A DNA stretch of 64,000 nt. Source: an uncultured virus (IMG/VR IMGVR_UViG_3300025313_000005) (lineage: Duplodnaviria; Heunggongvirae; Uroviricota; Caudoviricetes). The notes under the pieces are model-generated. The model made no database searches and had not been told where the DNA came from. It saw only the letters and a list, made by a program, of their open reading frames with translations. The translations under genes and the position numbers were made by a program. The stretch lies in the IMG/VR virus record IMGVR_UViG_3300025313_000005, one strand, 5' to 3'. Of this stretch, positions 19,937 to 63,645 are shown one piece after another; position 1 is the first letter of the stretch, and each line of letters starts with the position of its first letter.

Positions 19937-20472
19937 TTATATATTACTTGAAATATCAATTACGTCAAGTTGACGTAGCTTATTCTTAAGATAATCCAAA
20001 ACCAAATCATATACTTCTCTCTTTTCTTGTTCTTGTCCACACATGCAAGCATGTTCTATTCTATCTGCAGAGCCATCTTGGATAGCTTCATTACAGTAAT
20101 CTATTCTACTACCATGTGAACTCTACTACCATGTGAACTAGCCCATTTCATTAAGTTATGGGTATATGGATCTGCTTCTATATGGGGTTCATCTAGCCCG
20201 TTTTCAGCTATGTCATTGATAGCATTATGTATAAATTTATATTTGTAATCATCAGGGAACATATCGCTATGCGCTTCGTGTACCATTTCTCTAACCCACG
20301 ATGGCGTACCATCTTTACAACATACTATATACTTATCTGTGTTATGTCTTTGTTTTAATTCAAAATATTCACTCACTTCTAGGGCTAGTTGCTTTAAGCA
20401 GATCACACACGCGTCCTCATCTATTTCTTGACCACATTTATTGCATATCAAATTCTCATACATATTACTCAC
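19937..20472 (-). pseudogene. hypothetical gene frameshifted by a 17 bp tandem duplication
   Basis: CTACTACCATGTGAACT at 20106-20122 and 20123-20139; removing one copy gives a continuous 172 aa ORF. Confidence 0.7.
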
Positions 20473-20767
20473 CTCCTTCCATACCTAGTAATGCCCTTAC
20501 TATATCTAGGGGTATCGCAGCCTCTTGTTTTAAATCAAATTTACCTGAAGCTATTACTGCCTTAAGATTTAATATGGTAATAGTAGAATTACTTATAGTA
20601 TGTCCTGTGTTAAGTATGAGGTCCTTACCATCTAGATGTAAGCCAAAGAGTATCTCATCTACTAACCTAGTGGTGCTTGAGGTATCTAGTTGTATCTTAT
20701 GTAAAAGATAGGGATAGTGAGCTGGTAATATCTTGGTTATTTTTTTGGTTGCTTTATTCAAATGCAT
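20465..20767 (-). CDS. C-terminal-box family protein
   Basis: ends AIPLDIVRALLGMEGGE. Confidence 0.55.
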   Translation of the reverse strand: MHLNKATKKITKILPAHYPYLLHKIQLDTSSTTRLVDEILFGLHLDGKDLILNTGHTISNSTITILNLKAVIASGKFDLKQEAAIPLDIVRALLGMEGGE

Positions 20768-20776
20768 AAGTCTGTT

Positions 20777-20840
20777 AATAATTCTTTAAGCTCTGCAATT
20801 GGTTCTTGTCTAGGTCTTGTCTTACTCATTATTGTCTCCT
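20777..20840. repeat. 64 bp direct repeat of 21480-21543 (RBS plus 5' end of the 21083..21532 gene)
   Basis: identical sequence AATAATTCTTTAAGCTC...ATTATTGTCTCCT at both sites. Confidence 0.9.
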
Positions 20841-21082
20841 TATATTCTCTTGATATAATTGATATCCCTTTCATTAAACCATTCTATCTTTAACTTATCC
20901 TTATTATTTAATTCATCTATAGATAGCTTACGTGTGTCTGTGACCATGTTACTAAGCCAGTCATCCATATCTTTATTAAATTGTTTTTCATTGTTATACT
21001 TAACTTCTATTAAGCGTTCTCTAAATGGGTAATATACAGTCCATGCTTGTTCTATTTCCATCTAATTTCCCCCGTTATATTG

Positions 21083-21532
21083 TTAGTCTGTTAAGGATTC
21101 TTGAAGCATTTCTTTAAAGGTATTTTTTGTTAAATTAACAAATCCTCCTTCGGTCATGTAATTCCACCGATTGTTCATGCAACAAACTGTTCTGGTCATC
21201 CAAGGAATTTCTATGTTGATTGCTCCATCTACACCTGATACCACGCAACCTATAGGTCGAATAGTAATAAAGGTATTGCTTGTTCTTAAACATAGGCATT
21301 GTATTGCATACTCACCTAACTCATTTACTAATATTGTCTTGTTTTCTATAATTATTAATCCCTTACTTACTTCTTCCTTGAGCCATTGTTTAATTTTAGC
21401 CAATAACTCGTTAACATTATTGATATAATTTTCTTTTTCTGCGTGCCAGTTCTTACTGGCTTTGTATTCTTTTGATTGCAATAATTCTTTAAGCTCTGCA
21501 ATTGGTTCTTGTCTAGGTCTTGTCTTACTCAT
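21083..21532 (-). CDS. hypothetical protein
   Basis: AGGAG RBS; 149 aa ORF. Confidence 0.6.
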   Translation of the reverse strand: MSKTRPRQEPIAELKELLQSKEYKASKNWHAEKENYINNVNELLAKIKQWLKEEVSKGLIIIENKTILVNELGEYAIQCLCLRTSNTFITIRPIGCVVSGVDGAINIEIPWMTRTVCCMNNRWNYMTEGGFVNLTKNTFKEMLQESLTD

Positions 21533-21705
21533 TATTGTCTCCTGTATCTAAGATATGCCATGCTCCACAACAACATGGCCCTATTTCTACATCACAAGGT
21601 TCAGTACAAGCATTATACTTCTTTTGCCTATTATTGTCTTTCGTGGTTGCATCTTTATCTTGCATGATTTATACCCCATATTTTTATATATGGATCCTTT
21701 CTAGA

Positions 21706-22584
21706 TCAACTCTTAATGATGCACGAAGTTTCTTCTAATAATCCAGCCATCCTCATGGCTCTTATTAGTCTGGTTAGTCCTATACCACCACCACATCTAG
21801 TAAAGAAAGATGATGACAAAAATTCTTTTAATTCTTTTTCTACCCGCTCCTTACCAAATTGAGAATACAATATCTTAGCATACATACCGTCGCTTATCGT
21901 ATGAAAAAGATAATTCATTTCTTCTGGATCAGAAGATCTCTCGGCAGAACCTATCGTTTCCATACCATATAAAATAACATCAACCTTAGCTGCTTTATCT
22001 CTTCTAATTTTATCTACTACACACATATTCCAAAATGGTGAAGTATACTGTGGAAACAATGTTAAGAAAGCAATTGGTATATGACGTTCTTTATATAACA
22101 ATTCCTCATGTTCTGCTGTTAATATTTTAGTCTTAAATGTTTCTGCAAGTTGCGAGTAGTCATATATGGCCGAGCAATACTCTTGTTGATCTCCGAAACC
22201 TAAATGTTCCAATAACTCTAATTCCAGATTTACCAGATTATTTATATCACCATGTGTTTCGAATTCAAACATGGGGAAAACCAAATCATGTCTACCTGGT
22301 ATGGGATTAGCTTCATTGCGATAGCTTGTACTTATGCAATAGAATCCCGTTTCACTTGGGTTCTTGAGTAACTCATATTCTAGCCACATCTGACCTGTTT
22401 GTGGAAGAGGCCATAGTTCTCCTGCGTAGTTAAATGTAGCTATCGTAGATGGATCTTCACATGCTGCTAGGATGCTTAGTCTGTGTTGTACTGGTGTTTC
22501 TATAAAACCTTTAGCCTGAAAGAATTGCCGTAGTTTAGTTACAACATAATTGTATTCCTTAGGGTTGATTAAATTTATCGTCAT
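21706..22584 (-). CDS. class II aaRS catalytic-domain-only protein (AsnRS-like / asparagine synthetase-like)
   Basis: motif 1 LRQFFQAKGFIET, motif 2 SYRNE...RH...FEFE, motif 3 GGGIGLTRL; no N-terminal anticodon-binding OB domain. Confidence 0.85.
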   Translation of the reverse strand: MTINLINPKEYNYVVTKLRQFFQAKGFIETPVQHRLSILAACEDPSTIATFNYAGELWPLPQTGQMWLEYELLKNPSETGFYCISTSYRNEANPIPGRHDLVFPMFEFETHGDINNLVNLELELLEHLGFGDQQEYCSAIYDYSQLAETFKTKILTAEHEELLYKERHIPIAFLTLFPQYTSPFWNMCVVDKIRRDKAAKVDVILYGMETIGSAERSSDPEEMNYLFHTISDGMYAKILYSQFGKERVEKELKEFLSSSFFTRCGGGIGLTRLIRAMRMAGLLEETSCIIKS

Positions 22585-22889
22585 TACATCTCCTTTGGTA
22601 ATATACTTATTTTAACGCTCTCTCTTCTTTACTGAGATAAATATCTTCTGTCAATTCTTGTATCTTATTTACTTCTAGATTATCTAAATGCTCTTGTATG
22701 TGTTCTTGTATCCATACGTCTTTTTCTGTTTCTGTTTCATAAACAGCAATGGAGGAAAGAATTTCTACACAAGCCCTACTTTGTTTTAATTGATACTCAT
22801 ACGCTTTCTGTAGAGCTTCTTCTTTAGATCCTGCCAATACGATCATATTACAATCATAGTGTATATCGCTTACTGGTATTTTGTATAAT

Positions 22890-24104: not shown

Positions 24105-24524
24105 TTATCTCTCTTCTTGTAATGATTCCTTATAAGGAATCCACTTGCCGTTCATTCTAGATTCAATAACCAGAGAATCTGGTTGTATTTGATCTTCAAC
24201 TATCTTTTCTATATCTACGTATTTACCTAGTCTTTTAGATATTTCAATTTTATGCCATATTTTAAATTTTACTGTTTCAACTACCCTTTTAAACGCTTCT
24301 TTTTTATTCTGTAACTGATTTTTATGTTCTCTGCTTTCAGCTACAGCTCCTGAGGGGTGGTGGATTAATCTAACAGCACTCTCTGTTTTGTTTTGGTGTT
24401 GTCCCCCCTTGCCGCCTGCTTTAAAAGTTTGTATTTCAAAATCATCTATTGTAATTGAAAACAGTAATTGTTTATTTATATTCTTTTGTCCTTCTTCACC
24501 AACTTTAAACTTATTCATTCTCAA
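24105..24524 (-). CDS. peptide chain release factor-like (ArfB/PrfH-type GGQ) peptidyl-tRNA hydrolase
   Basis: FKAGGKGGQHQNKTESAVRLIHHPSG...QLQNKKEA; only 139 aa, so no codon-recognition domains. Confidence 0.88.
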   Translation of the reverse strand: MRMNKFKVGEEGQKNINKQLLFSITIDDFEIQTFKAGGKGGQHQNKTESAVRLIHHPSGAVAESREHKNQLQNKKEAFKRVVETVKFKIWHKIEISKRLGKYVDIEKIVEDQIQPDSLVIESRMNGKWIPYKESLQEER

Positions 24525-25935: not shown

Positions 25936-25967
25936 TTTCTAAATTAGGGATTATTTGTATTGTCATT

Positions 25968-26570
25968 TTAAGAATACCTCCTCTCTATTAAATTTAAACC
26001 AAAATCTAATATTTTTTTACCTGTTGCCTTTGCAACATTAGAAGCATTAATAGCAAAACCAGACTTAGTAGCAGTATAGTAAGCAGTATAAGCAACGTTA
26101 GCAGCGTTAGCAGCAGCAGTAGCAACAGCATTAGCATCAGTAACAGTATTATTATTATTAGCTTCAATATAAGCAGCATAAGCATCATTAGCTTCAATAT
26201 AAGCAGCATTAACAGCATTAGCAGCATTAGTGGTGAAGACAACTTTAGTAGCATCAGCAATATAAGCAATATAAGCAGTATTAGCTGCAGCAATAACAGA
26301 CTTAGCAGCTTCTATCGCTAGGTGTGGCTTATCACTATCTGTACACTTTTCAAAAATCGGTAATACTAATTTTGCAGCATACATTGCATATTCCACTAAT
26401 TCCTTCTCTTTTAAAATTTTTGTCAGGAGCAAATTACCCAAATCGAATTTATTATTATGTATGTAGAATTGAATCAAAGTCTTCAATTCTATCTTTCTTA
26501 ATCCGTCGCACGTGGCTACGTCACCTTCGCAGGCATTGTTTTTTACTAAAAATTCTCTAGTTATCTTCAT
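25968..26570 (-). CDS. Imm5-like protein with an Ala-rich low-complexity region
   Basis: YAAKLVLPIFE...DKPHLAIEAAK followed by Ala/Asn/Tyr repeats. Confidence 0.6.
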   Translation of the reverse strand: MKITREFLVKNNACEGDVATCDGLRKIELKTLIQFYIHNNKFDLGNLLLTKILKEKELVEYAMYAAKLVLPIFEKCTDSDKPHLAIEAAKSVIAAANTAYIAYIADATKVVFTTNAANAVNAAYIEANDAYAAYIEANNNNTVTDANAVATAAANAANVAYTAYYTATKSGFAINASNVAKATGKKILDFGLNLIERRYS

Positions 26571-29996: not shown

Positions 29997-30017
29997 GGAT
30001 AACCGCCCTCTATTGTT

Positions 30018-31923: not shown

Positions 31924-32361
31924 CTATGTTGCACGGTTCTTCTTCTTTTTAGAAGGAAGAGATATAGACTCTACATATTGCTCTAGTATCTTTAGGTCTA
32001 ATTTATTACCATATAGGCGGGATATAGGGGACATCCCATCATCTAAAGTGGCATGTAACCATATCTCTATCTCTTTCATAGGTAATTTCATCATAACATT
32101 ATTTCTAATACGTAACCTATGTCTGTCTTTTTCTATCTCTAGATAATTTACACCATAATAGGTAAGTGCTTCTTCGATAGCCTCAAAAGATACATCTAAA
32201 CCTGCTGCTGCATCATGGAGATATCCATCATATTTGTTGTTTATTATAGCTACTACTTCATGTATGTGTTTACCTACACCACCTACTATGGGTTGATGTA
32301 CCCACGGATCAGTACTTGGTGTTAGGTATCTGTATTGTATTTTCTCAGGATTCATTAGCAT
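31924..32361 (-). CDS. DUF433-like HTH protein
   Basis: QPIVGG...V...AAAGLDVSFEAIEEALTYY. Confidence 0.55.
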   Translation of the reverse strand: MLMNPEKIQYRYLTPSTDPWVHQPIVGGVGKHIHEVVAIINNKYDGYLHDAAAGLDVSFEAIEEALTYYGVNYLEIEKDRHRLRIRNNVMMKLPMKEIEIWLHATLDDGMSPISRLYGNKLDLKILEQYVESISLPSKKKKNRAT

Positions 32362-32599
32362 CTCCAGGTATTCCTAGTAATGCCCTACATACATCAACAG
32401 GTCTACAGCTATATTCGAAAAAATTACATAATTTGAAATTGGTAGTGACAGTTCCCCATAATCGAGATGGGTAAATATTTACAGCACACAAATGTAGGAT
32501 ATTATCTATGTACCCGTAGGTGGCTATAGTGGTACCTCCAATACTTTTGAAGGCACAATGTGATACCACACATTCTATGGGGGATAATACTGGGAACAA
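32345..32599 (-). CDS. C-terminal-box family protein
   Basis: ends CRPVDVCRALLGIPGDANES; GGAGG RBS. Confidence 0.55.
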   Translation of the reverse strand: MFPVLSPIECVVSHCAFKSIGGTTIATYGYIDNILHLCAVNIYPSRLWGTVTTNFKLCNFFEYSCRPVDVCRALLGIPGDANES

Positions 32600-35766: not shown

Positions 35767-36681
35767 TTAGTTTTCTTTAAATTGCAACCTAACTGGATAA
35801 GCACTACCAGGTATAGGATAAGTTGTAATAGTCATTTCACCCTTAGACAATACATACGTAGCTGATTCATACGCTTGTAAATCAACTATTACCCATGACC
35901 CTTCAGGTGTATCCAAACATGAACGAATGTGTAATACCACATAAGCCCTTCCACCTCTTGCACTTATAGTTAATTTACGTTCTTTAAAGGACATAGATAG
36001 CTTTAATTTTGTAGTAATACCATAGTTGCCCTTATTGGTATGACCAGTGATAGGGTCTGTTAAATATGGTGACATGCCCAAGGACACCGTAGTGTCCTTC
36101 TTAATATCATAAGCAGTTATATTATATCTATAAATACCAGCTATGTGATGACTACGTCCTTGGGCCAAGTAACTAGCTCTACCAAATATCACCTGTATAT
36201 TAATAGGCTCATCTGTTTCTATATCTCCTGTTATAGAGAATACTTCATATCTATGAGCTGTTCCTAATAATATTTTAACAGGTTTAGTAATTAACAACTT
36301 ATTATTTATAGATTCGCCTGTGGTTAGGTGGCTAGGAGGCATTGCCTGGGTTAACTCTAAGTATTTATTGGTTGAATTAACTCCTGCTACGTATCCACTT
36401 CTACTTGTGTCCTTACCACCAACTAAGATTACATTGGCCTGTTTATTAACAGGGGTAATAATCAAACTAAACTGATTACCTTCCTCAGTAATATCTGTAA
36501 ACTGCATATTCTTATGATGTATAATCAACCTTGCTTTACCTGAGAAGTTGTTGAGTTGATATAATATACCACCAGATGTAATTGTTTCTGGAGCATTACT
36601 TATAACAACTTGTTCCGCAAAGGAACAAGTTGGCAATAATAGTAAAATAAGTATTATGGTTTTGTATATATTTCTTGTCAT
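35767..36681 (-). CDS. exported protein, DUF3370-like
   Basis: signal peptide; SNAPE and NKGNYG motifs. Confidence 0.45.
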   Translation of the reverse strand: MTRNIYKTIILILLLLPTCSFAEQVVISNAPETITSGGILYQLNNFSGKARLIIHHKNMQFTDITEEGNQFSLIITPVNKQANVILVGGKDTSRSGYVAGVNSTNKYLELTQAMPPSHLTTGESINNKLLITKPVKILLGTAHRYEVFSITGDIETDEPINIQVIFGRASYLAQGRSHHIAGIYRYNITAYDIKKDTTVSLGMSPYLTDPITGHTNKGNYGITTKLKLSMSFKERKLTISARGGRAYVVLHIRSCLDTPEGSWVIVDLQAYESATYVLSKGEMTITTYPIPGSAYPVRLQFKEN

Positions 36682-36932
36682 GGTAATCCTAGTAAGATTC
36701 TACTAACAGACGCAGGTGTTGATGTTGATTTATATGGTGTAGGAGAGAGCATACCGCATGCATTGTCTGTGCTCCATTCTGAGGCTATTATGCGGTGTGG
36801 TGTGACTTCATAGGCGGCTATAACTGTATTTTCTTTGAGTAATTGTTTTTCTATAAATCTATAGATTGTATTTTGTATTTGCATAATAGTTATTTTCATA
36901 GGATTACATATACTCCTCAAAAATAAATTCAT
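36678..36932 (-). CDS. C-terminal-box family protein
   Basis: ends STPASVSRILLGLP. Confidence 0.6.
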   Translation of the reverse strand: MNLFLRSICNPMKITIMQIQNTIYRFIEKQLLKENTVIAAYEVTPHRIIASEWSTDNACGMLSPTPYKSTSTPASVSRILLGLP

Positions 36933-37129: not shown

Positions 37130-37384
37130 TTATCCATGTGATTCAGTATTATATATATCAAGTAATGCTCTACATATGTCTTCTGGTATACAAAACTGAA
37201 ACATATTATCTGCTCCTATTATATCTTTTTCTGTTGCTGTGTGATTTTTGATATGATCTGGATAGATATATATATCACGAAGTTCATTTTTTAGATTATG
37301 TTGTATAACTGTTGCCGCATTTATTCTCAAGCTATGCGGTATTATAATTGGGGTAGTAATGGTTACTCTTGTAGCTTTATGCAT
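37130..37384 (-). CDS. C-terminal-box family protein
   Basis: ends CIPEDICRALLDIYNTESHG. Confidence 0.55.
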   Translation of the reverse strand: MHKATRVTITTPIIIPHSLRINAATVIQHNLKNELRDIYIYPDHIKNHTATEKDIIGADNMFQFCIPEDICRALLDIYNTESHG

Positions 37385-37385
37385 A

Positions 37386-37655
37386 CTATATCCCTAAAAG
37401 TATTCTTGCCATATCCGATGGTCCTATATGTTTGGCAGTATCTGGCAATGATACAATATGCAAACTTCCACAACCACATTGATCTGTGCTCATTATTTTT
37501 GTTTTTTTAATTACGATCTTACTGTAATGACTATGATATACCATGTCTGGTTTAATTTTACTACATAGTGTATTTTCATAGTTTAACACTAGATAGCTAC
37601 AATAAGTATTTCCCCACTCATATATTACCTCTGAAACACCATCCATATTATTCAT
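37386..37655 (-). CDS. C-terminal-box family protein
   Basis: ends IGPSDMARILLGI. Confidence 0.6.
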   Translation of the reverse strand: MNNMDGVSEVIYEWGNTYCSYLVLNYENTLCSKIKPDMVYHSHYSKIVIKKTKIMSTDQCGCGSLHIVSLPDTAKHIGPSDMARILLGI

Positions 37656-43759: not shown

Positions 43760-43993
43760 TTATATCCCCAAAAGTGCTCTTGCCATTATTGAAGGAGTAG
43801 CTTTATCTGCATCTATAAATTTACTCCTAGATTTATTTGTGGTTATTTTGTCTTTAAAGATGTGATATTGGTGAGTGATCTGTAGATTGTAGTCAGTTAA
43901 TAAGAAACTGGTATAGGTCTTAGCATCAATATGTGGTGTCCATGAACGAACGAGAGTTTTAAAGTGTTTATATTTTATTTCTATATTAGTCAA
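43760..43993 (-). CDS. C-terminal-box family protein
   Basis: ends ATPSIMARALLGI. Confidence 0.6.
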   Translation of the reverse strand: MTNIEIKYKHFKTLVRSWTPHIDAKTYTSFLLTDYNLQITHQYHIFKDKITTNKSRSKFIDADKATPSIMARALLGI

Positions 43994-44041
43994 GACTTAC
44001 TCCTAAAAGTATTCGAATTGTGTATGATGGACCTCTATATA

Positions 44042-44257
44042 TTATAAATTAAGTAATATTTTACATATACTACTTGGTGTGGATATTGTATTATTTTTAT
44101 ATACCATCCAGTTGTCTGGTCTGTTTCTTTCAATACTAGTTGAACATATACTTATCAGCTCTCCATATGCACGAGTACAGAATACACCAGCACCGACTTC
44201 TACTTTTTCTTTTGTAGTAAGTATTTCATAATAAGTTTCTAGTTGTTGAGTAATCAT
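44042..44257 (-). CDS. C-terminal-box family protein
   Basis: ends STPSSICKILLNL. Confidence 0.6.
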   Translation of the reverse strand: MITQQLETYYEILTTKEKVEVGAGVFCTRAYGELISICSTSIERNRPDNWMVYKNNTISTPSSICKILLNL

Positions 44258-48066: not shown

Positions 48067-48921
48067 CTATATAGTAGTACTACTTAGATAATCTAGGAGA
48101 TCAAGTCCCGACTCGGTAATATATGTGTATCCATTTATATTGTTAATACAATCAATGTCTTCTAATTTATCTAGAATAAGTTGATTATCTGTGGTGGATG
48201 CCATTAGAGACAACTGTATACCAGTTAAGCTATTATCGCTAAGCTTGCTTAGTACAGCAATATATTTATTTATCTTGTGTTGCTTATCATAAAGAAGGTG
48301 TTCAGCTAAATTAACAACCTGATCTGGAATATTGGATTTTTCTGTGTAACTATCAAATAAGTCATTTTTCCAGGGGACATCGTGGTTTTGCGGGAAACTA
48401 TAATCTTCTATACGCTCATAGGCAAACGTAGTTTGAGGTTTTACACTAACGGTTCTTAGTATAACTGACCTTATTTGTTCGCTATCAACAAATGCTGGAC
48501 TAATAATTATATTTATTTTCTTATATCCCTTGCCTCCGCAAGGCAAGTCTACCTGTTCAGTTGCTTCTATATTCCCCATATGATTAGTTACTATGGCAAA
48601 TTTGTAATTAGGTAAAACAGTATCATAGTCCATACTGGAAAATTTAGCGGACATAGTATGATGAGAATGTATCATTCCATCCCACTGCCCTTTTTGTTCT
48701 TTTAATAAGCAATCTGCAACTGCAATTTCCTGTTCTGGAAATACTAGTTCGGTAATTTCACGGGATTTATTTACTTTAAATAAAGCAAGTAGCTCTAAGT
48801 CTGGATAAACCTTAGTGGCGTATACCCATTTCTCCCATAGTTTCATTGAGAAATATAGTACATCACTCTGAGCAGATACCCAGTCACAACTTATACATGG
48901 TTTTGTAGCTAATGTCATCAT
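48067..48921 (-). CDS. JAB/MPN (JAMM) metalloprotease, deubiquitinase-like
   Basis: upstream Glu (DLEL) and GMIHSHHTMSAKFSSMD = HxH-x7-S-x2-D. Confidence 0.85.
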   Translation of the reverse strand: MMTLATKPCISCDWVSAQSDVLYFSMKLWEKWVYATKVYPDLELLALFKVNKSREITELVFPEQEIAVADCLLKEQKGQWDGMIHSHHTMSAKFSSMDYDTVLPNYKFAIVTNHMGNIEATEQVDLPCGGKGYKKINIIISPAFVDSEQIRSVILRTVSVKPQTTFAYERIEDYSFPQNHDVPWKNDLFDSYTEKSNIPDQVVNLAEHLLYDKQHKINKYIAVLSKLSDNSLTGIQLSLMASTTDNQLILDKLEDIDCINNINGYTYITESGLDLLDYLSSTTI

Positions 48922-48924
48922 AAA

Positions 48925-49863
48925 TTAATCCTCCGATGTTGTAAAATTAATTTTAAGTTCTCTTATTAGTTCATTAGGAATATCGTCTTCAGTCATCTCG
49001 TCTTTAAAATCTTCAATAATATCGTCTATGAGATTTTGTGGAACATCATGTTTATCCATACGTTCTATATATTTATCAACAACATCTTGAACTCTACTTG
49101 GCAAACTATCAATATCTATATTGTCTAAGTAGCTATCTATTGCGTCATCAAATACCCAACAATCTTCATGGTTACAGTCATCACTGCCATGGTAATCACC
49201 ATCATCAAGTATCTCATCCTTAACATCATCTTTTATCTTATTTAATATTGTTTTCGGTATTAAGGAGGAATTAAACGCAGTTAAAGTACTCATTGGAGCA
49301 GATATAGAAACCTCATTCTCAAACATAGAGTATACAGCAAGTAATCCAGCAAGAGCAGCTTGATAAACCTTTGGTTTATCGCTGTAGTCAGTTCCTTCTT
49401 GATGTTCTTGCTGGGGATCAAAGGTTATTGGTATACCTCTTGTAATTGTAATCCAATCACCGTCATATCCAGCGCGTTGATATTTTATTCGATTGTCTTG
49501 ACAGTAAGTTCTAACTAATCTCTGAATATCTACAGTATCAGTAGCACAAAATACATGTGTAGTATCATTTAATAAAACACTAATGTTATCACTAGATAAA
49601 GCACTAGACATAACGTTTATTGTAAATGCAGGTTTTGTATCGTAAATGGTCTTGCTAAGATATGTTACTTTTTTTGTGTTTCTATCAGTATGTGTTGTAG
49701 GTAATCTTGTAAGATTATTGTCTTCTAATGTATCATAATCAATAAGAGTTAGGTTATTAATACTAGAAAAATGTGAATCTTTCGAAGCTAATGCAAGAAA
49801 GTAAGCAATCCACGATCCAACACCTCCACATCCTATTATTGTTATGTTTGTTGTTTTTACCAT
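48925..49863 (-). CDS. ThiF/MoeB/E1-like adenylyltransferase with an acidic C-terminal extension
   Basis: IIGCGGVGS, IDYDTLEDNNLTR, KV and CATD motifs. Confidence 0.88.
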   Translation of the reverse strand: MVKTTNITIIGCGGVGSWIAYFLALASKDSHFSSINNLTLIDYDTLEDNNLTRLPTTHTDRNTKKVTYLSKTIYDTKPAFTINVMSSALSSDNISVLLNDTTHVFCATDTVDIQRLVRTYCQDNRIKYQRAGYDGDWITITRGIPITFDPQQEHQEGTDYSDKPKVYQAALAGLLAVYSMFENEVSISAPMSTLTAFNSSLIPKTILNKIKDDVKDEILDDGDYHGSDDCNHEDCWVFDDAIDSYLDNIDIDSLPSRVQDVVDKYIERMDKHDVPQNLIDDIIEDFKDEMTEDDIPNELIRELKINFTTSED

Positions 49864-49875
49864 GGTTTAGCCTCC

Positions 49876-50493
49876 TTAAATTAAGACTGCTGTAAGAAAC
49901 TTAGGAATACTTCCTAAAGATATATTTCTTAGATCATCTAATATTTGTGTCCAACTAGATGATAAATCGCAATCATCCCTAAGAGTATGTGCGCTATCTG
50001 TATTATAGATACTTAAAATATTTTCTATGTCAGAAACTCTGTTTTGTAAGTTTTCAGGCTTTGTTGTAAAGACAGTGCTTCCAAAGCAAACCTGATTGGT
50101 ATCTTTATCATAATGAAAAGGCGGAAAATACTCTTTCCAATTATCTGGTGTAATGCCTGGAATAGGCAAAAGCCGTATGCTTACTGGTGGCTCATATATT
50201 ATCATGAGTGGTACTGTTTCTTGCATATGAACTGGAATGTTCCAGGTTACATTATTATGATATATTTTTTTAATAGAAAAGTTTCCAAATGCTATTGAGT
50301 AGATCTGGCTATCCTCAACCTGGTATATACCAGGTTGAGGTAGTGTTATTGTGTTTGTGATGTGATTATTTAAGACTCTCAAACATGTATTGTGCGTCGC
50401 AAGACCGCTTTCTATATCATATCTGTCTTGTTTTTCCTGCTCTTGTACAATAGCATAGAGCGTTTCTACTTCATTATCTTCCAGGTTTAGCAT
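49876..50493 (-). CDS. prokaryotic E2-like (UBC fold) protein
   Basis: PPFHYDKDTNQVCFG (HPN...CL-like) and ILSIYNTDSA (LLxxPNxxSP-like); lies between Ubl and E1. Confidence 0.65.
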   Translation of the reverse strand: MLNLEDNEVETLYAIVQEQEKQDRYDIESGLATHNTCLRVLNNHITNTITLPQPGIYQVEDSQIYSIAFGNFSIKKIYHNNVTWNIPVHMQETVPLMIIYEPPVSIRLLPIPGITPDNWKEYFPPFHYDKDTNQVCFGSTVFTTKPENLQNRVSDIENILSIYNTDSAHTLRDDCDLSSSWTQILDDLRNISLGSIPKFLTAVLI

Positions 50494-50710
50494 ATGTTCT
50501 CAATTCTAGGACATCATCGTGTGCTAGGTCAAGAGGCAGCTCATTCTTATTAACTATTTCACGACCATTAAGGATTACGTCTACGGTAGTAATATTCCTA
50601 GTTTTTAGAGCTTGTTTTAAAGCCTCTAAAAGGGACATGCTCCCGTCATAAGAAATTACCTCTCCATTTATGAGAATCTTTCCTACTTCATTAAAGTCAT
50701 TGATATTCAT
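50474..50710 (-). CDS. ubiquitin-like (beta-grasp) protein
   Basis: 78 aa; SLLEALK helix, VILNGREI, L..DDVLELR and C-terminal KPG-R; AGGAG RBS. Confidence 0.7.
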   Translation of the reverse strand: MNINDFNEVGKILINGEVISYDGSMSLLEALKQALKTRNITTVDVILNGREIVNKNELPLDLAHDDVLELRTYAKPGR

Positions 50711-52767: not shown

Positions 52768-52974
52768 TTATTCAAAAAATTCTTTATTGTAAATACCAAG
52801 TAAAAATTTGACTACAAGACTAGGCGTTGAAATCTCAGCATTTGGCGAACAAGATACCAACTCATAACAATATGAAGTGTCAAGTTTGGTCTTTGCTACG
52901 TGCACACCCCAATGATTAATACCATGGTATATTGATATAGATTGATATAGAGAATTACAGCATTGTTTAATCAT
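52768..52974 (-). CDS. C-terminal-box family protein
   Basis: ends STPSLVVKFLLGIYNKEFFE. Confidence 0.6.
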   Translation of the reverse strand: MIKQCCNSLYQSISIYHGINHWGVHVAKTKLDTSYCYELVSCSPNAEISTPSLVVKFLLGIYNKEFFE

Positions 52975-53191
52975 ATAAACATGGTACTTCTATACCAAAG
53001 AGTGCTTGACATACTATTGCTGGTGTTGTTGTATTAAGACCTCTGCATTTAGGATACATAGCCCTAATCTTATTCATCTCACGGACGGTAATTCTTACCC
53101 GTAAATCTAGATAGTCATCCATAATATCTATTGCTACTACATTGGTTGAAGCTAATGGTGTTTTCATTTGAGTTGGCGCATACCATTCCAA
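52967..53191 (-). CDS. C-terminal-box family protein
   Basis: ends TTPAIVCQALFGIEVPCLYD. Confidence 0.55.
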   Translation of the reverse strand: MEWYAPTQMKTPLASTNVVAIDIMDDYLDLRVRITVREMNKIRAMYPKCRGLNTTTPAIVCQALFGIEVPCLYD

Positions 53192-53398: not shown

Positions 53399-53629
53399 AT
53401 GTACATGGCTGCTTTCAAAGTTCGCTATATTAAACGTGGACTTAGGAACACTGAGTCTTTTATAGACCATAAGAACGGTATTGTTTTAACCTCAGACAAT
53501 CCCGTTTCCGACGACCTCTCAGGACTTGCTGATTTAAGCATTATCCTACGTGGTCTTAAGATGGACCTTCTTAAGATAGAACAAGGTACGTTAGCTGATA
53601 TCAACGTAACTACAAGTTACCACTACTAA
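53399..53629 (+). CDS. hypothetical protein, isolated counter-oriented transcription unit
   Basis: AAGGAG RBS; own promoter-like site and terminator. Confidence 0.6.
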   Translation: MYMAAFKVRYIKRGLRNTESFIDHKNGIVLTSDNPVSDDLSGLADLSIILRGLKMDLLKIEQGTLADINVTTSYHY

Positions 53630-53710: not shown

Positions 53711-53740
53711 GCGTATCCTTTGGGATACGCTTTTGTTTTT
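53711..53740 (+). terminator. rho-independent terminator
   Basis: GCGTATCC-TTTG-GGATACGC-TTTTGTTTTT. Confidence 0.8.
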
Positions 53741-53931
53741 TATTTGGCTATACCCAATAACATCCCAATAACAAAATCTGGCGTAGCTATACCACTAGTC
53801 ATTGTTGGTGGTATAGCACGATTAAAACAACACATATAACTACTAGCAATTATATAAAGCACTGAAGCATTACTACCACAGTAACAATTAAGAACGGCAT
53901 TATTGCTATATGTAATTATATCATAAATCAT
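53740..53931 (-). CDS. C-terminal-box family protein
   Basis: ends ATPDFVIGMLLGIAK. Confidence 0.55.
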   Translation of the reverse strand: MIYDIITYSNNAVLNCYCGSNASVLYIIASSYMCCFNRAIPPTMTSGIATPDFVIGMLLGIAK

Positions 53932-54119
53932 TATCGTCTATACACACTTTCAAGCACTCTTCACATAAAGTCATAGGAGAGTTAACTGATATTTCTCCAC
54001 AATTATCACACACATAGTCACCACTATCATACATTAAGTCATCTTTTTTATTCATATCTATCTCCTATAATATTAAGTAGTAATCTACATATTCTCTCAG
54101 TGGTTGCCTCATCATTCCA

Positions 54120-56556: not shown

Positions 56557-56618
56557 CTACCAATACCTCTTTCTTTATTATATTCTAATATCAATACCCA
56601 GTAATGCTCTTACTATAT

Positions 56619-57605
56619 CTACACATATTGTTTTCTCATATAAGCCAGATCAGCCTTACCGAGCTCTTCTCCTAATACATCTAGTTCTATTAACCTTATT
56701 TTATGTCCCATAATCTCACATACATGTGTATTATCTTTAAACCAACGTATGGTCTTAGGATTAATATCTTTTAATCTACTTGCTTCATCTTGATATTGCT
56801 CTCTTGCTTTAAACATATGAGCTGGACATGTATTTTCCTCTAAAGACATTTGCCTTAATTTGACAATACTTAAATACCTACTTTCGTCTTCCCCTCTCGG
56901 ACGTGACATTGTTTGTGGCTCGCCTTGTGTTCTAACATATCCCCTATCTTTCTGTACTCTGGAATATCCATGGCTTTGATCGGAGTTCCATGTTGCATTA
57001 ATATTATTAGTTATCTCTTTATCTACAAACGCACCAGTTACAGCACACCGCCATAAAGGAAGATGTGGTTGATCTTTTATGTCCTGAACACTTCTCTCGT
57101 AGGGTTGATTTCTAAAGCTGTTTTCTTTATCTCTACATGCGAAGGAGCAATTACTACAATTACGATATTGACTTACGTTATTATTACGTCTGTAAGCAGG
57201 CCACTCTTCTCCATACAATCCTTTAACAACCAGTCTAGGTACTCCATAGAATAATACGGGCGATATATTTCTTCCTAGATTATAACCATCTAGGATATTT
57301 ATCTGAGGAATACCTGGCTGATAAGTGCGCAGAGCTTGCTGTATCTTACTTAGAATATCACCATCTACCCCTTGCTTTGCAAGGGTAGATGTTATGTGTT
57401 GATTGGTTTCTTGCGTATTACCTAATGCCCAACTAGCCCAAAATCTATAACCAATTGTTTGGGTAGTATCCTTAATCTTATATATCCACCCCCTATAAGA
57501 TATACTATTGCTTTCATCTACTATGAAATCAAACTGAGCAATACGTTCATTTCCACTCTTGTTTGTGACGCTACACTTCTGTGCTCTTACATACATGAAC
57601 ATCAC
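56619..57605 (-). CDS. Cys-containing hypothetical protein upstream of the MoxR-VWA pair
   Basis: 328 aa; CSNC...C...CPAH; GAGGTG RBS. Confidence 0.6.
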   Translation of the reverse strand: MMFMYVRAQKCSVTNKSGNERIAQFDFIVDESNSISYRGWIYKIKDTTQTIGYRFWASWALGNTQETNQHITSTLAKQGVDGDILSKIQQALRTYQPGIPQINILDGYNLGRNISPVLFYGVPRLVVKGLYGEEWPAYRRNNNVSQYRNCSNCSFACRDKENSFRNQPYERSVQDIKDQPHLPLWRCAVTGAFVDKEITNNINATWNSDQSHGYSRVQKDRGYVRTQGEPQTMSRPRGEDESRYLSIVKLRQMSLEENTCPAHMFKAREQYQDEASRLKDINPKTIRWFKDNTHVCEIMGHKIRLIELDVLGEELGKADLAYMRKQYV

Positions 57606-57620
57606 CTCTTGTTAAAAGAT

Positions 57621-57716
57621 AGCTTGCGAAGCAAGCTTCGTTTACTTAGACCACCTGAAAAGCAAGACGTCAAGGCTTTAAGCGAAGCGTGCCTTGACGT
57701 TGAAGCTGCAGGTGGT
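57621..57716. other. structured intergenic element, copy 1
   Basis: AGCTTGC-GAA-GCAAGCT hairpin; ACCACCTG...CAGGTGGT enclosing ACGTCAAGGC...GCCTTGACGT. Confidence 0.8.
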
Positions 57717-57738
57717 TGCAGTTTATTTTAATTTTTCT

Positions 57739-57999
57739 TTATATATTTAATAATATTCTTGCTAGATTACTAGGCGTTGCAGGTGTAGGTGAAACATTAT
57801 TGAAATCAGAATATATCCCTGGTTGATGGACTTTCTTTATAACAGATGGTGTAATATAAGTAATTGAATTTGCTTTTAAGAACTGATTATTATCAAATCT
57901 ACTATCATATATCTCGTAAACTTTACTTCTTAGTAAGTATGATATACCCATAATATTGATAGTTAAATATATTTCATACGGAAGTAATTGATTAGACAT
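57739..57999 (-). CDS. C-terminal-box family protein
   Basis: ends ATPSNLARILLNI. Confidence 0.6.
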   Translation of the reverse strand: MSNQLLPYEIYLTINIMGISYLLRSKVYEIYDSRFDNNQFLKANSITYITPSVIKKVHQPGIYSDFNNVSPTPATPSNLARILLNI

Positions 58000-58394
58000 G
58001 TGTTTCTTCTTCTTATGAAATACCTAGTAATAACATAGACACATTTCTCTCTTAGCTCCTGCCAATGTCTGGATATGCTTTTGGGGCTGCAGGATAATTA
58101 GTACCTCTTGTAGGTCCATCAGCACCTACCAATGAATTAATTCTACTATGGAAGTGAGGTCTATTGCTACCAAATATCTTAGGGAACATAGACGTACTAA
58201 ATTCTTGCACGGTTATTATCTCACTAGCAAAGAGAGTTTGTGCTTGAGCCCTAGCATCAATTAAGCTTAATGCATCTATTATAAAATCATCGTAGCCACC
58301 TCTACGGTGGCTTATGTGTACTAAAAATTGAGGCATACTATCTCCTTCTTATGGGTATTCCTAGTAATGCTGAAACTAATATATATAGAAATAC

Positions 58395-58769: not shown

Positions 58770-58774
58770 GTCAG

Positions 58775-58996
58775 CTACCTCCTTAAGTTAAGTAACATAA
58801 TAACCATGTGTGATAGAGTACAAAAACACTCCTCGTCCCTATTAAGAGGGTCTGCATGTTTTATTGGTGTATCCTCCTGAATTCCATGAGGATTTATCGT
58901 GATAAATCTACAAAAATTATTCTCATAACATATATGTAGGTAGTTTATTGTACACTTCATTGAATGATATACGGCTACAGGGTTCATATTATTCAT
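58775..58996 (-). CDS. C-terminal-box family protein (divergent)
   Basis: ends CTLSHMVIMLLNLRR. Confidence 0.45.
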   Translation of the reverse strand: MNNMNPVAVYHSMKCTINYLHICYENNFCRFITINPHGIQEDTPIKHADPLNRDEECFCTLSHMVIMLLNLRR

Positions 58997-59594
58997 TGCT
59001 TTAATTCATATGTGCATTCGGCATATGTTCTGGTTTATGTCCTGTTTCTTCTTTGTATCTCTCCACAATATTATCTACTACCTCTTGTGCTTCTTCGTGG
59101 GTATCAAATATAACTTGAAATATCTTATTTGTATCACCATCTTCTACTCGAACGATCCATTTATTAGTCATAACACTATAACCTAATTGTAATCTAGCTG
59201 GCATAAACTTCTCCTTCTTATATTAAATTTAGTATATGTTTAGTAATTGTTTAACCAGTATATATAGCGATGCCAAATGCTTCAATTCCTCTCTCTATAC
59301 TCTCTTAGTCATAGGCTTTATAGATAGTAAGGCATGGTCCCGCAGGAGGAACCAATACCAATTGAGTATCCCTCCTATGTTTCATCTTAACAGGTATAAA
59401 TATCTGCCTATCTTGTAACCATGTAGCTATTATAGATGTGCTTAATCTATACCTACCTTTTTGAATTATATTTTTAGGTTTACGTCTAAGACTTAGTTTA
59501 TTCTTCTGCATGTAAAATATGGTTCTCCTCTTCTTCGTCGTAAATAGAGCCATCTATGGCGCTTTATCCACGGTCCTATCGTGGAGGGGAATAG

Positions 59595-59855
59595 CTAAAT
59601 ATTTAATAGTGTTTTACAAAACGAACTTAAACAAGCGATATCATCTTCATATAATAAATTGATAAGCGCAGTACCTGATGCAGATGTTATAATATTAGGA
59701 TAAACATAATATGATTTATAGTTTCTACACCAACCGACGCTAGACATTGAGCCCTCATATATAACCATTATGCCTTCAGAATTAAAAGGCTTAGTAGTAG
59801 GATCGGGTAAGTTAAGGATCTTATTTATTCTTTCCATAGAAGATAGCCACAGCAT
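59595..59855 (-). CDS. C-terminal-box family protein
   Basis: ends ACLSSFCKTLLNI. Confidence 0.5.
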   Translation of the reverse strand: MLWLSSMERINKILNLPDPTTKPFNSEGIMVIYEGSMSSVGWCRNYKSYYVYPNIITSASGTALINLLYEDDIACLSSFCKTLLNI

Positions 59856-60050
59856 GGTTTGCCATAGTGTGGTGGTTTCTTATAATGTCTAAAATAGTAA
59901 TCATAGTTGTATCCCTTTGGATAGTTACGAAAGTACATCTCCTCTTTAGCATATGTATGTGTTGCTTCATAAAGAACTATTAAGGCGCGTGGTATAAAAT
60001 TCCTTATCCAAAAATTTATTAGCATTGTGGGGTTCAAATACAAATACGCT

Positions 60051-60965: not shown

Positions 60966-61024
60966 AGGAAGATCCTTCTTTCTCTAGATTGCTTCTTTAA
61001 TCTTACTTATATTTATACTAGTAG

Positions 61025-61222
61025 TCATATTCCTAGTAATAATTTACATACCATATGAGGTGTTGCAATATCTTCACTAGAACATATCTTACTTTGATCA
61101 TATTTTTGTGATCGTGATATGATAGCATTTCTAAATATACCAACGAGGAATAAAACTTCACCCGTATCATTTCCAGTTTTATCAATGTGAACATTAGCAT
61201 AACCAAATATCCACTTCTCCAT
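61025..61222 (-). CDS. C-terminal-box family protein
   Basis: ends ATPHMVCKLLLGI. Confidence 0.6.
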   Translation of the reverse strand: MEKWIFGYANVHIDKTGNDTGEVLFLVGIFRNAIISRSQKYDQSKICSSEDIATPHMVCKLLLGI

Positions 61223-61829: not shown

Positions 61830-62060
61830 TTATATCCCCAGTAGTATTCGTGCAATAACAGACGGTGTAGACTTTTCATAATTATCTCTTGGACGCATTT
61901 TTCTGACTCGTTGTTTTGATGAATCAATATACGTAGAAAAAACCAATATATCAGAAGATATATTGGCTTGTAATTTTAATATCAAAGTTGCCGCATGTTT
62001 TGCACGTAATGTACGTTTTCTATCATCAAATATTTCAATGTTTTGATTAGTCATTTTCAT
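61830..62060 (-). CDS. C-terminal-box family protein
   Basis: ends STPSVIARILLGI. Confidence 0.6.
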   Translation of the reverse strand: MKMTNQNIEIFDDRKRTLRAKHAATLILKLQANISSDILVFSTYIDSSKQRVRKMRPRDNYEKSTPSVIARILLGI

Positions 62061-62329
62061 ACATCCAACTATAGAATACAGGATCTATGCCAGAATTGCA
62101 TATTCTATTCTCTAATATCTTAACTAGACACGTAGAACTACACGTGTATATGTTATCCGACTTTAATTTAAAGAGAGCGAGTTCCTTACAATACCCACAT
62201 ATCTCTTTGTTGGGAACTATAGTTTCTACTAAATTATGAAAGATCATATACTTCATAATATGTTACACCCCTAATAATTGACGTACTAGTGTACTTGAAC
62301 TAGCTACTCGATCTTTATAAAGAGGAGGC

Positions 62330-62361
62330 GCAGGAGCGCCCCCTCTATTAGGCGCTCCTGC
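62330..62361. terminator. GC-rich hairpin, probable terminator
   Basis: GCAGGAGCGCC-N10-GGCGCTCCTGC. Confidence 0.5.
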
Positions 62362-62385
62362 TATAGGAGGGAAAACAATGTAGTT

Positions 62386-62853
62386 TTACTTATGATTACG
62401 TTCTTCAGCTTTAGTTAACTGATCAATAGGATCTACTATCTGAATATACTCTCTTGTATCCGTTATCATACCACGCTCTATTACTTCACTGGGAGTTGTA
62501 TATGCTTGTTTAAGTTGACTAAAGAATCCAAGCTTACGTATCTGTACTTGAGGACGCATGCGCTCATTAAATGGTTCACTAATACTTATCATATAATCTA
62601 TCTCGTAGGTATTACCATTCTTACCTGTTTTGGGTATACTTACTTTTTGATTTAGTATATTAATTATAACATCTGTCTTTTTGCTCTTAAAGCTCTTATT
62701 GCGTTCACCTGTGGTGAACTTGGCTATAACCCCAGCTAATGCCACCTTAAGAGGTATGGTATCAAATACACGCAGTTCTAATTTGCGCGGAGAATCAACA
62801 GCACCTTGAACCTGACTTGCTACTTCTTCTGTAATTATTTCTTTTATTATCAT
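62386..62853 (-). CDS. hypothetical protein downstream of structured element copy 2
   Basis: AAGGA RBS; 155 aa ORF. Confidence 0.6.
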   Translation of the reverse strand: MIIKEIITEEVASQVQGAVDSPRKLELRVFDTIPLKVALAGVIAKFTTGERNKSFKSKKTDVIINILNQKVSIPKTGKNGNTYEIDYMISISEPFNERMRPQVQIRKLGFFSQLKQAYTTPSEVIERGMITDTREYIQIVDPIDQLTKAEERNHK

Positions 62854-62881
62854 ATCCTTATGCTCCTTTTAAATTAAGATG

Positions 62882-62972
62882 AGCTTGCGAAGCAAGCTTA
62901 TAAACCCCGCACCACCTGTAACGTGAAGAAGTCAAGGGATGTTTTGTCCCTTGACTTCAAGCGGCAGGTGGT
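62882..62972. other. structured intergenic element, copy 2
   Basis: AGCTTGC-GAA-GCAAGCT hairpin; ACCACCTG...CAGGTGGT enclosing GAAGTCAAGGGA...TCCCTTGACTTC. Confidence 0.8.
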
Positions 62973-63384
62973 AGATAAAGTACTATTTAGAATTTAATGT
63001 TTCATATAAGAGATTAGCACAGTCTTCACTGCATATAAATGCTCTCATATCTTCATCATACCATTGAGTTATACTGCCACATTGCATACAATTTGTTTTC
63101 TTATTAGTTAGTATTAAATAATCTTGATAAATATTATTATCCAATTTATCACTTCTCTATAATGATCTATAAAAAATCAAAAAACTTTTGTTGTTCTGGA
63201 TTCATAAACCCCTACTCCATTTCAGATTCTAGTATCTTTCCTACTACTAACTCCACACATCCAACATGTAAAAGAGTGTACAATAAAGATAAAAGACAAA
63301 GCAATATATTCAGATATATCACGCGTACTTAGTGCTATATAAAGAAGAAGTGATATCCCTGTAATAATAATACACAATACAATA

Positions 63385-63645
63385 CTAAACATTATTAAAG
63401 TATGGACCATTACTTCGATATGCGTCTTCGGCTTGCTTATATAGTCCAAGTAATGCAAATACCACATGGTAAGGCGTACAAATAGAATTTGTTGGAATAT
63501 GGTTTTCTGTGTTAATAATACTTATATTATTTATTTTAATTTTTTTAAAACGATTAAAATCTTGCATGAACAATACGGACACTTCAAGTTCACTATTACT
63601 CCAGCAGTAAACAGTTTTTTTATGATTCATAGTATACCAATTCAA
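63385..63645 (-). CDS. C-terminal-box family protein
   Basis: contains CTPYHVVFALLGL near the C-terminus. Confidence 0.55.
   Translation of the reverse strand: MNWYTMNHKKTVYCWSNSELEVSVLFMQDFNRFKKIKINNISIINTENHIPTNSICTPYHVVFALLGLYKQAEDAYRSNGPYFNNV

Follow-up and report, generated by a model that had tools for sequence, protein, structure and literature searches.

A conserved C-terminal box in a dispersed family of otherwise dissimilar small proteins of an uncultured large phage

What does selection preserve in a group of small phage proteins that end alike but otherwise do not resemble one another? The question is raised by a 64,000-nt stretch of DNA (IMG/VR record IMGVR_UViG_3300025313_000005; hereafter, the window) from an uncultured phage with a genome of about 180 kb, in which a dispersed family of at least 16 small proteins with unrelated N-terminal parts and a shared C-terminal box had been predicted from the nucleotide sequence. 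All 16 open reading frames (ORFs), 63–100 codons long and located on the minus strand, are present at the predicted positions, and each encodes the 13-residue box that was quoted for it; the synonymous codon sets given for the Leu-Leu-Gly (LLG) segment are correct as well. We analyzed this family in the window and in one relative, a 9.1-kb contig denoted L052. Judging by their sequences, the box ORFs are real small genes of a lineage-specific phage family, with translation predicted, and the comparisons described below show that selection keeps only an open frame of about 50–85 almost arbitrary codons together with a C-terminal 13-residue module behind a polar linker.

A C-terminal box shared by small phage proteins

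The box has the consensus x-[T]-P-x-x-h-[C/A/V]-[R/K]-h-L-L-[G/N/D]-[I/L] (h, hydrophobic residue) and is located near the C-terminus, followed by 0–18 further residues. It opens with Ser or Thr and Pro, continues with two free residues, and then runs through hydrophobic, small, Arg or Lys, hydrophobic, Leu and Leu positions to Gly, Asn or Asp and a final Ile or Leu; positions 6, 9, 10, and 13 are hydrophobic. Position 12 is Gly, Asn, or Asp in all 21 copies found in the window; among the ORFs, it is Asn or Asp rather than Gly in 5 of the 16 window members, and Tyr or Arg in two of the eight members found in L052.

Enrichment over shuffled controls, which had been suggested as a check of the family, is pronounced. 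A profile hidden Markov model (HMM) built from the 16 boxes and run on the six-frame translation of the window produced 18 matches of at least 10 bits and 22 of at least 8 bits, compared with means of 0.33 (maximum 2) and 1.4 (maximum 3), respectively, in 30 dinucleotide shuffles of the window. The 22 matches comprise the 16 ORFs (15.9–22.4 bits), five extra minus-strand copies (8.1–14.8 bits), and one partial match (2040–2084) that was dropped from the family for want of the LLG end; the best plus-strand match scores 7.7 bits. A DNA profile recovers the same copies, which all lie on the minus strand within 20–64 kb, with every other match at 6.9 bits or less; the DNA similarity among the copies is only about 60–70%. 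When each box was left out of the model in turn, 13 of the 16 scored 9.2–21.2 bits.

The box persists in a diverged relative

Contigs from other metagenome runs contain a diverged relative of the phage that aligns with the conserved genes of the window and skips the bodies of the box ORFs, that is, the parts upstream of the box. In L052, which shows 68–88% DNA identity to the window, the interval between the vWA and Rad52 genes contains eight box ORFs of 69–81 amino acids that score 8.2–19.6 bits with the window-trained HMM (the next best match scores 4.9), each with the box on the coding strand and 1–14 residues before the stop codon. The scan of related phages that accompanied the original prediction as a proposed check is positive, and these eight ORFs corroborate the family independently.

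In the window, the corresponding interval contains three box ORFs and one box remnant. Six of the eight L052 box ORFs match the window through the box alone, and a seventh has a weak match over 38 residues (E = 0.002). The only window member with a recognizable ortholog is 52768–52974 (3983–4213 in L052; here and below, ORFs are denoted by their left coordinates where convenient). Conservation in this pair is confined to the first 14 residues and to the box with its tail (the last ~20 codons); the middle 35–45 codons, which are unequal in length, cannot be aligned in protein or DNA, which suggests internal replacement or very local hyper-divergence. For 53740, box and tail are positionally matched in L052 (3102–3311). 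The bodies of positional counterparts are as dissimilar as shuffled sequences (z = 0.3–1.4), and the segments that vary between the window and the relative end at or within a box. Because the L052 bodies are unrelated to those of the window although the 14 non-box L052 genes, some of only 45–78 amino acids, retain 48–93% protein identity to their window counterparts, the comparison shows a family in fast turnover, in which related phages acquire, lose, and replace whole genes but keep the box.

Selection acts on the box as a peptide

The original prediction attributed the conservation of the box to selection at the protein level, and this is borne out by codon-position information, a likelihood model, Leu codons, and synonymous changes between orthologs. 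Mean information per codon position across the 13 box codons is 0.81, 1.14, and 0.63 bits for positions 1, 2, and 3, respectively; second positions are the most conserved and third positions the least, and the equal conservation of third positions that had been named as a sign of constraint on DNA is not seen. A model that combines amino acids with the codon usage of the genome (leave-one-out) outperforms an independent-nucleotide model by 62.9 bits for 16 copies and by 64.9 bits for 21. Synonymous codons in the conserved Leu, Gly, Pro, Thr, and Arg columns are used much as elsewhere in the genome. In 29 copies from the two genomes, the two Leu columns comprise 58 codons; a purine occupies the third position in 29 of the 30 T-initial ones, compared with 16 of the 28 C-initial ones (Fisher p = 3e-4). 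The Leu, Arg, Thr, Pro, and Gly codons of the box vary synonymously within and between genomes: four box codons (Ser, Thr, Leu, and Val, with Leu changed by two bases) differ synonymously between 52768 and its L052 ortholog, and 53740 and its positional match, L052 3102, encode the same residues at box positions 2, 3, 6, 10, and 11 by different codons.

These results bear on the alternative that the box is a DNA-level element, namely, a 39-bp recombination linker or regulatory cassette that swaps small genes, with the peptide as a by-product. The precedent is PeSL (promoter-early stem-loop) of the hyperplastic regions of T4-type phages, described as a short element bordering small nonessential ORFs that close relatives have gained, lost, or exchanged; on these accounts, PeSL-mediated shuffling of small ORFs is documented (PMC2839356, PMC4122927). 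As with PeSL so described, gene content between the boxes differs between relatives, the window and L052, and variable segments end at or in the box. Five box copies lie outside ORFs, directly upstream of the next Shine-Dalgarno (SD) sequence; the consensus carries TAG in both other frames (…TGTAG… and …CTAGG…), so that one frame alone reads through; and a Leu-Leu hexamer, TTACT[A/T], is in excess in the window boxes (see below). However, the low conservation of third codon positions, the 63-bit advantage of the protein model, and the synonymous changes at Leu, Arg, Thr, Pro, and Gly are at odds with constraint on DNA; the modest DNA likeness among copies would make poor homology for recombination; and one ORF-less remnant is a deletion product. 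Unlike PeSL, which is intergenic and consists of a sigma-70-like promoter and a terminator stem-loop, the box is coding, is conserved as a peptide, and lacks both: 16 of the 21 window copies and all eight L052 copies are inside ORFs, sigma-70-like sites in the window (97 compared with 96.3 expected) are not enriched and do not coincide with boxes, and RNAalifold found neither a stem-loop nor a consensus structure (0 pairs) in the 21 box copies with flanks. We consider a DNA-level element very unlikely; a DNA linker as the main constraint conflicts with these data, but it may have a part in the turnover.

Related nucleic acid explanations were dismissed. Rfam and tRNA scans gave nothing. Pairing between the Pro and Gly codons would amount to a 2-bp helix with weak covariation (reached in 11–18 of 500 shuffles), too short for a structure, and is better explained by Pro3 and Gly12 being lost together (Fisher p = 0.03). 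An integron cassette with attC sites was rejected because the 21 copies with flanks have no consensus structure and the conservation is codon-periodic.

Dissimilar bodies and a predicted terminal helix

Upstream of the box, the proteins are as unrelated as originally described. The best pairwise BLASTP match has E = 0.001, for one pair only; no ungapped motif is shared among the bodies (information content, 13.56; shuffled, 13.05 ± 0.28, maximum 13.9); and Smith-Waterman comparison of the 24 bodies from both genomes yields scores that follow the shuffled distribution (mean 22.5 vs 21.5), with two pairs above the shuffled maximum. Body lengths span 48–83 amino acids, and no column at a fixed distance upstream of the box is conserved, except for a polar stretch at −2 to −4 (the hydrophobic fraction at −2 is 0.08, z = −3.3). 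The in-frame codon score is positive in all 16 bodies, with a mean of 0.31, compared with 0.41 in long genes, 0.34 in other small ORFs, and 0.10 in antisense ORFs, and in 15 of the 16 box ORFs the first start codon is 1–10 codons behind the opening of the frame.

The box had been proposed to be a capped amphipathic helix. Gly, Asn, and Asp favor the helix C-cap, and Ser/Thr-Pro the N-cap; the residue pattern matches a capped amphipathic helix some nine residues long. Single-sequence AlphaFold2 (AF2) models of two members agree with the proposal, at low confidence: both put a short predicted helix on the box (residues 68–75 of 76 and 67–74 of 77). The models are all-helical (mean pLDDT 76 and 61), with the bodies rendered as generic helices in differing layouts; that of the 61830 protein consists of one long helix plus the box helix.

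Could the family nevertheless be a single old domain, in which the bodies diverged, the fold was kept, and the box is a core or oligomerization helix rather than a separable tag? All copies are on one strand in one genome region and share a size range, two body pairs exceed the shuffled maximum, and the TTACT[A/T] excess in the window points to common descent or gene conversion. However, no body column or motif is conserved even when the sequences are anchored on the box, the body lengths vary, a polar linker precedes the box, the helix layout differs between the two AF2 models (low confidence), and positional counterparts are at the shuffled level while neighboring small genes remain recognizable. 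This possibility appears rather unlikely to us.

Box copies outside ORFs

The five ORF-less copies (43998, 54069, 56593, 58356, and 59235) are stop-to-stop pieces of 18–23 codons, each directly upstream of the ribosome-binding site of the next gene, and it is these intergenic copies that raise the possibility, discussed above, of a regulatory DNA element. Between the vWA and 44-aa zinc-ribbon genes, where L052 carries three intact box ORFs, the window has the copy at 54069 only; its codons line up one to one with those of the box in the third L052 ORF (2517–2762), which shows it to be a deletion remnant of a box gene. The other four copies are assumed to be remnants, too, and the comparison shows how deletions leave the box ahead of the next gene. 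Two of the five remnants share the frame of the upstream stop, as would be expected by chance (the copy at 58356 is in frame behind the TGA of a 124-aa ORF); an alternative genetic code or read-through was rejected, given that, as judged by eye, the long genes are intact under translation table 11 and the remnant frames are at chance level.

The distance from the box to the next start codon ranges from 2 to about 135 nt; 10 of the 16 boxes end within 40 nt of it, one directly precedes a terminator, and others are followed by gaps of 40–135 nt. In a few cases only (36684, 37389, 43763, and 43998), the box Gly codon doubles as the SD of the following gene: in the 36678 ORF, the ATG of that gene overlaps the stop codon, and the copy at 43998 carries the SD of the 43760 ORF.

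The ORF-less copies, the SD-poor starts and the near-random bodies, all missed in the original prediction, open two further readings, namely, that the box ORFs encode regulatory nascent peptides or that they are young or proto-genes. In the former case, they would be cis-acting leader ORFs whose last residues slow or arrest translation or termination in the ribosome tunnel, tuning the translation, mRNA stability, or transcription termination of the neighbor for about 20 genes together. The confinement of amino acid conservation to the C-terminal 13 residues, with the upstream part free and the tail irrelevant, is consistent with such a function, as are the scarcity of own SD sequences in box ORFs followed by genes with strong ones, the proximity of 10 of the 16 boxes to the next start, and the translation-related genes of the phage (an RF-1-domain GGQ protein and peptide deformylase). 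In leader peptides of the SecM, MifM, and TnaC types, too, only C-terminal residues are conserved and the ORF is located just upstream of a gene. However, the caps and the amphipathic spacing of the box are features of a folded helix and are not known from arrest motifs; 63–100 codons is long for a leader peptide; several box ORFs have no adjacent downstream gene (one directly precedes a terminator, and others are followed by gaps of 40–135 nt); the distance to the next SD is not fixed; and box remnants without an ORF persist ahead of genes. Weighing these sequence features, we regard a nascent-peptide function as unlikely.

Table 1. Box ORFs and ORF-less box copies in the window. All features are on the minus strand; scores are from the HMM built from the 16 boxes.
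Coordinates	Strand	Feature	Box	Remarks	Score (bits)
20465..20767	-	box ORF, 100 aa	20480-20518	4-aa tail	15.9
32345..32599	-	box ORF, 84 aa	32369-32407	TTG start with SD; 7-aa tail	21.4
36678..36932	-	box ORF, 84 aa	36684-36722		16.8
37130..37384	-	box ORF, 84 aa	37154-37192	Asp at position 12; 7-aa tail	20.4
37386..37655	-	box ORF, 89 aa	37389-37427	stop immediately after box	18.4
43760..43993	-	box ORF, 77 aa	43763-43801	TTG start with SD; DnaE start 4 nt on	22.4
43998..44036	-	ORF-less copy		20-aa stop-to-stop piece between two box ORFs	8.4
44042..44257	-	box ORF, 71 aa	44045-44083	Asn at position 12	21.5
52768..52974	-	box ORF, 68 aa	52792-52830	7-aa tail	18.5
52967..53191	-	box ORF, 74 aa	52991-53029	TTG start; Gln at 8, Phe at 11	18.9
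53740..53931	-	box ORF, 63 aa	53749-53787	followed by terminator hairpin	17.3
54069..54107	-	box remnant		between vWA/metallopeptidase gene and 44-aa zinc-ribbon gene	12.6
56593..56631	-	ORF-less copy		23-aa piece; directly upstream of SD and GTG of MoxR-like gene	14.8
57739..57999	-	box ORF, 86 aa	57742-57780	Asn at 12; next gene start ~135 nt downstream	17.7
58356..58394	-	partial ORF-less copy		18-aa piece; upstream of SD and ATG of next gene	8.7
58775..58996	-	box ORF, 73 aa	58784-58822	Leu at 3, Asn at 12	17.9
59235..59273	-	partial ORF-less copy		21-aa piece; upstream of SD and ATG of next gene	8.1
59595..59855	-	box ORF, 86 aa	59598-59636	Leu at 3, Asn at 12	16.8
61025..61222	-	box ORF, 65 aa	61028-61066		21.6
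61830..62060	-	box ORF, 76 aa	61833-61871		19.5
63385..63645	-	box ORF, 86 aa	63442-63480	TTG start; 18-aa tail	19.5

A portable docking helix as the simplest proposed mechanism

The simplest mechanism, to which we give about an even chance of being correct, is that the box is a portable docking helix that would act in trans on one common partner. The module would be a self-contained amphipathic helix, with Ser/Thr-Pro as the N-cap and Gly, Asn, or Asp plus a hydrophobic residue as the C-cap, that docks many different disposable bodies onto a shared partner, which could be a hub of the host or a machine of the phage. The box proteins could then be early accessory or host-takeover proteins that are routed to one place, or else variable carriers of a conserved ‘warhead’ peptide, and docking could result in packaging, degradation, inhibition, or recruitment.

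Several observations weigh against this mechanism. The data cover 64 kb of a genome of about 180 kb along with one fragment of a relative, and the count of at least 16 members consists of 13 firm ones and three that are plausible by position and pattern only, given that 52967, 59595, and 53740 scored 7.0, 3.6, and 2.8 bits, respectively, when left out of the model. Few box ORFs have an SD match ahead of the start codon: three of the 16 window members and three of the eight in L052, or 6 of 24 in all. Such a match is present in 66 of 94 other genes (p = 1e-4), made up of 28 of 40 long genes, 28 of the 42 remaining small minus-strand ORFs, and 10 of 12 other L052 genes, and at 24% of random positions; internal starts of the box ORFs do not make up for the missing SD, and no conserved motif was detected upstream of their starts (information content, 6.11; shuffled maximum, 6.15). 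Expression of the box ORFs may accordingly be low or depend on coupling to the upstream gene; about half of them start within a few bases of the upstream stop or overlap it, which makes such coupling a possible route of translation. The body composition is intermediate between that of random translation and that of the long proteins of the phage and slightly closer to the former (Kullback-Leibler divergence 0.054 vs 0.066), which would fit carriers without a function of their own and also nonfunctional proto-genes. The AF2 models are single-sequence ones, with pLDDT of only about 50–60 at the box. Finally, TTACT[A/T] is present in 11 of the 21 window boxes, compared with 15.6% expected from codon usage (p = 1e-4), with no excess in L052 (2 of 8); some DNA-level relatedness or homogenization of the copies thus exists, which we attribute to common origin or to gene conversion inside the genome.

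Comparison with known systems

Among well-studied phages, a close parallel is provided by the T-even internal proteins IPI, IPII, and IPIII and the polymorphic ip loci, which are described as diverse proteins that share only a capsid targeting sequence and whose bodies are thought to be shaped by an arms race (PMC3012670). Judging by this description, both are sets of diverse small phage proteins with only a short terminal peptide in common. Unlike the T4 signal, which is N-terminal, the box is C-terminal, has a different sequence, and occurs among replication and early-type genes; a search of PHROGs revealed no sequence likeness between the box proteins and T4 internal proteins. The T4 capsid targeting signal is cleaved by the prohead protease, and the T4 internal proteins are components of the virion.

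Short peptides that dock proteins onto a hub include the clamp-binding tails of T4 and bacterial replication proteins, encapsulin cargo-loading peptides, and the F-box-like PRANC ends of poxvirus ankyrin proteins. The box family resembles these, in general terms only, in that unrelated proteins carry a short, portable, mostly C-terminal peptide rich in Leu and Ile with a Gly. Three specific candidates were rejected. The bacterial sliding-clamp-binding motif starts with Gln, and box position 8 is Gln in only one of the 16 ORFs and Arg or Lys in 11. The box presumably resembles helix 2 and the turn of an Xre-type helix-turn-helix (HTH), but there is no Pfam HTH match at E ≤ 1 among the 16 proteins, and the ORFs end 0–18 residues after the box, with unconserved tails. 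A membrane-targeting helix carries low weight, given that the box has one basic residue and is often acidic at positions 4–5.

As had been surmised, the box does not belong to a recognized family. None of the 16 proteins exceeds the cut-off in Pfam (best E, 0.069); the best PHROGs match has E = 0.011, with no family common to two members; the box profile produced no matches among PDB sequences at E ≤ 10; and no known family is matched end to end. Literature searches on paralogous small phage proteins with a C-terminal motif and on PeSL returned no description of the box, and we take this specific box to be undescribed. Searches for further relatives were uneventful. No usable match was obtained in the ESM Atlas; in a protein collection, the 43760 and 52768 proteins matched only themselves, a weak negative given that the L052 ortholog of 52768 was missed as well. 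Scans of IMG/VR proteins with DnaE and MoxR retrieved a single contig, L050 (MoxR 34% identical), with no box in its 15 kb (best score, 4.7 bits). The degenerate box DNA pattern produced 49 single matches in IMG/VR, close to the chance expectation, and no locus with two boxes; a peptide pattern derived from four members produced 12 stretches there, none of which was confirmed, and the L052 E1 query produced nothing. Among genome contigs, the DNA pattern had at least 120 matches, including two loci with two matches of at least 9 bits; the top ones are chance-like among the matches listed. A metagenome scan with MoxR was negative.

One sequence recurred among the chance matches of the box pattern: the same short sequence, in a stop-to-stop piece of 23–38 codons, is present in six unrelated-looking viral contigs (L001, L019, L027, L028, L037, and L044) and is probably a conserved noncoding or RNA element of another phage group.

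The phage and its replication region

No close DNA match to the window was detected among the deposited phages in INPHARED. Eight of the 10 box-family proteins that were looked up are exact database entries, on about 20 contigs (the longest of 180,683 bp), and the window DNA is present in metagenome runs from soil, sediment, and groundwater. A metagenome query with an exact 29-nt conserved stretch retrieved contigs L051–L053, of which L051, from the 180-kb contig, is 100% identical to the window.

The window covers the replication and nucleotide metabolism region of this large phage, with nearly all genes on the minus strand. Pfam matches include ThyX, Dam, dUTPase, UDG, RecA, SSB, a class II aaRS-like protein, an RF-1-domain protein, RNA ligase, RNR, UvrD, a ClpP-like protein, peptide deformylase, HNH, AAA, GNAT, ThiF/E1, Rad52, and a MoxR-like/vWA-metallopeptidase pair. 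The DnaE-type polymerase (1046 aa) shows about 35% identity to phage DNA polymerase III alpha subunits. The translation-related set consists of the RF-1-domain (GGQ) protein (24105–24524), peptide deformylase (38612–39103), and the class II aminoacyl-tRNA synthetase-like protein (21706–22584).

The ClpP-like protein (35172–35723), encoded in the replication module, retains Ser, His, and Asp residues that are invariant or nearly so across 85 aligned homologs; several of its nearest relatives are domains within proteins of 600–1360 amino acids. ClpP-like proteins with 87% and 84% identity imply that two further relatives of the phage exist. The L-G-[ILM] element of the box resembles the ClpX loop that docks on ClpP; complex prediction for three ClpP-like subunits and a 36-residue box segment gave a negligible score (0.01), which is no evidence either way. 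The classical-type AAA protein (44261–45436; DUF5925 match) ends in a Met-Gly-Phe tail.

The block at 48067–50710 (minus strand) consists of four genes, for a 78-aa protein, a 205-aa protein, a ThiF/E1-like protein, and a 284-aa protein. The E1-like protein is the only one with a family match (Pfam, PADLOC E1-E2, and NCBIfam), and the 78-aa, 205-aa, and E1 proteins are 75–86% identical to their L052 counterparts; the block could be a phage-borne ubiquitin-like conjugation operon. Its presence raises the question of whether the LLG of the box might be an activation or cleavage site for this operon or for a phage peptidase, with the tails removed. The tails behind the Gly are of variable length, and the E1-like protein, which has three small or unassigned neighbors, is well conserved in the relative. 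However, as noted above, position 12 is not Gly in 5 of 16 window and two of eight L052 ORFs, the AF2 models are helical rather than beta-grasp (low confidence), and the bodies share nothing that an E1 could recognize, so that a ubiquitin-like or processed tail is exceedingly improbable. Within the 205-aa gene, a perfect 28-nt palindrome with a 12-bp stem (50313–50340) is 100% kept in L052, compared with ~79% DNA identity of the surrounding gene.

In the interval shared with L052, a lone plus-strand gene of 76 codons (53399–53629) with its own SD converges on a shared terminator hairpin (53711–53730); at 93% protein identity, no other gene of the interval is as well conserved. Two identical 17-nt GC-rich hairpins (57621–57637 and 62882–62898), each directly upstream of a larger minus-strand gene (328-aa and 155-aa ORFs, respectively), may be a shared regulatory or terminator element. 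A 200-aa protein (25968–26570) with a long low-complexity stretch rich in Ala, Asn, and Tyr has no family match.

Implications for orphan genes of large phages

Many small orphan genes of large phages lack a known logic; here, selection is visible on one short terminal module, with the remainder of each gene exchanged from one close relative to another. We consider possible, though on the improbable side, a broader interpretation in which the box is an address label that routes more than 20 unrelated, fast-renewed mini-proteins to one machine, many of them probably derived from near-random sequence upstream of a pre-existing box, in a kind of ‘gene nursery.’ If this were the case, the machine would be a host hub, the procapsid, or the phage’s own ClpP-like, AAA, or E1 proteins, and the family would be a bacterial-virus counterpart of the poxvirus PRANC/F-box adaptors or of encapsulin cargo tags; any new open frame that reads into the box would gain a function. 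With its near-random bodies, missing ribosome-binding sites, and conserved end, the family is a candidate system for the study of phage gene birth. It also offers a testable handle, with one peptide and one presumed partner: the partner could be a new phage-targeted host hub, the box could be a new packaging or degradation signal and a natural portable tag, and finding the partner would give a role to more than 20 orphan genes together.

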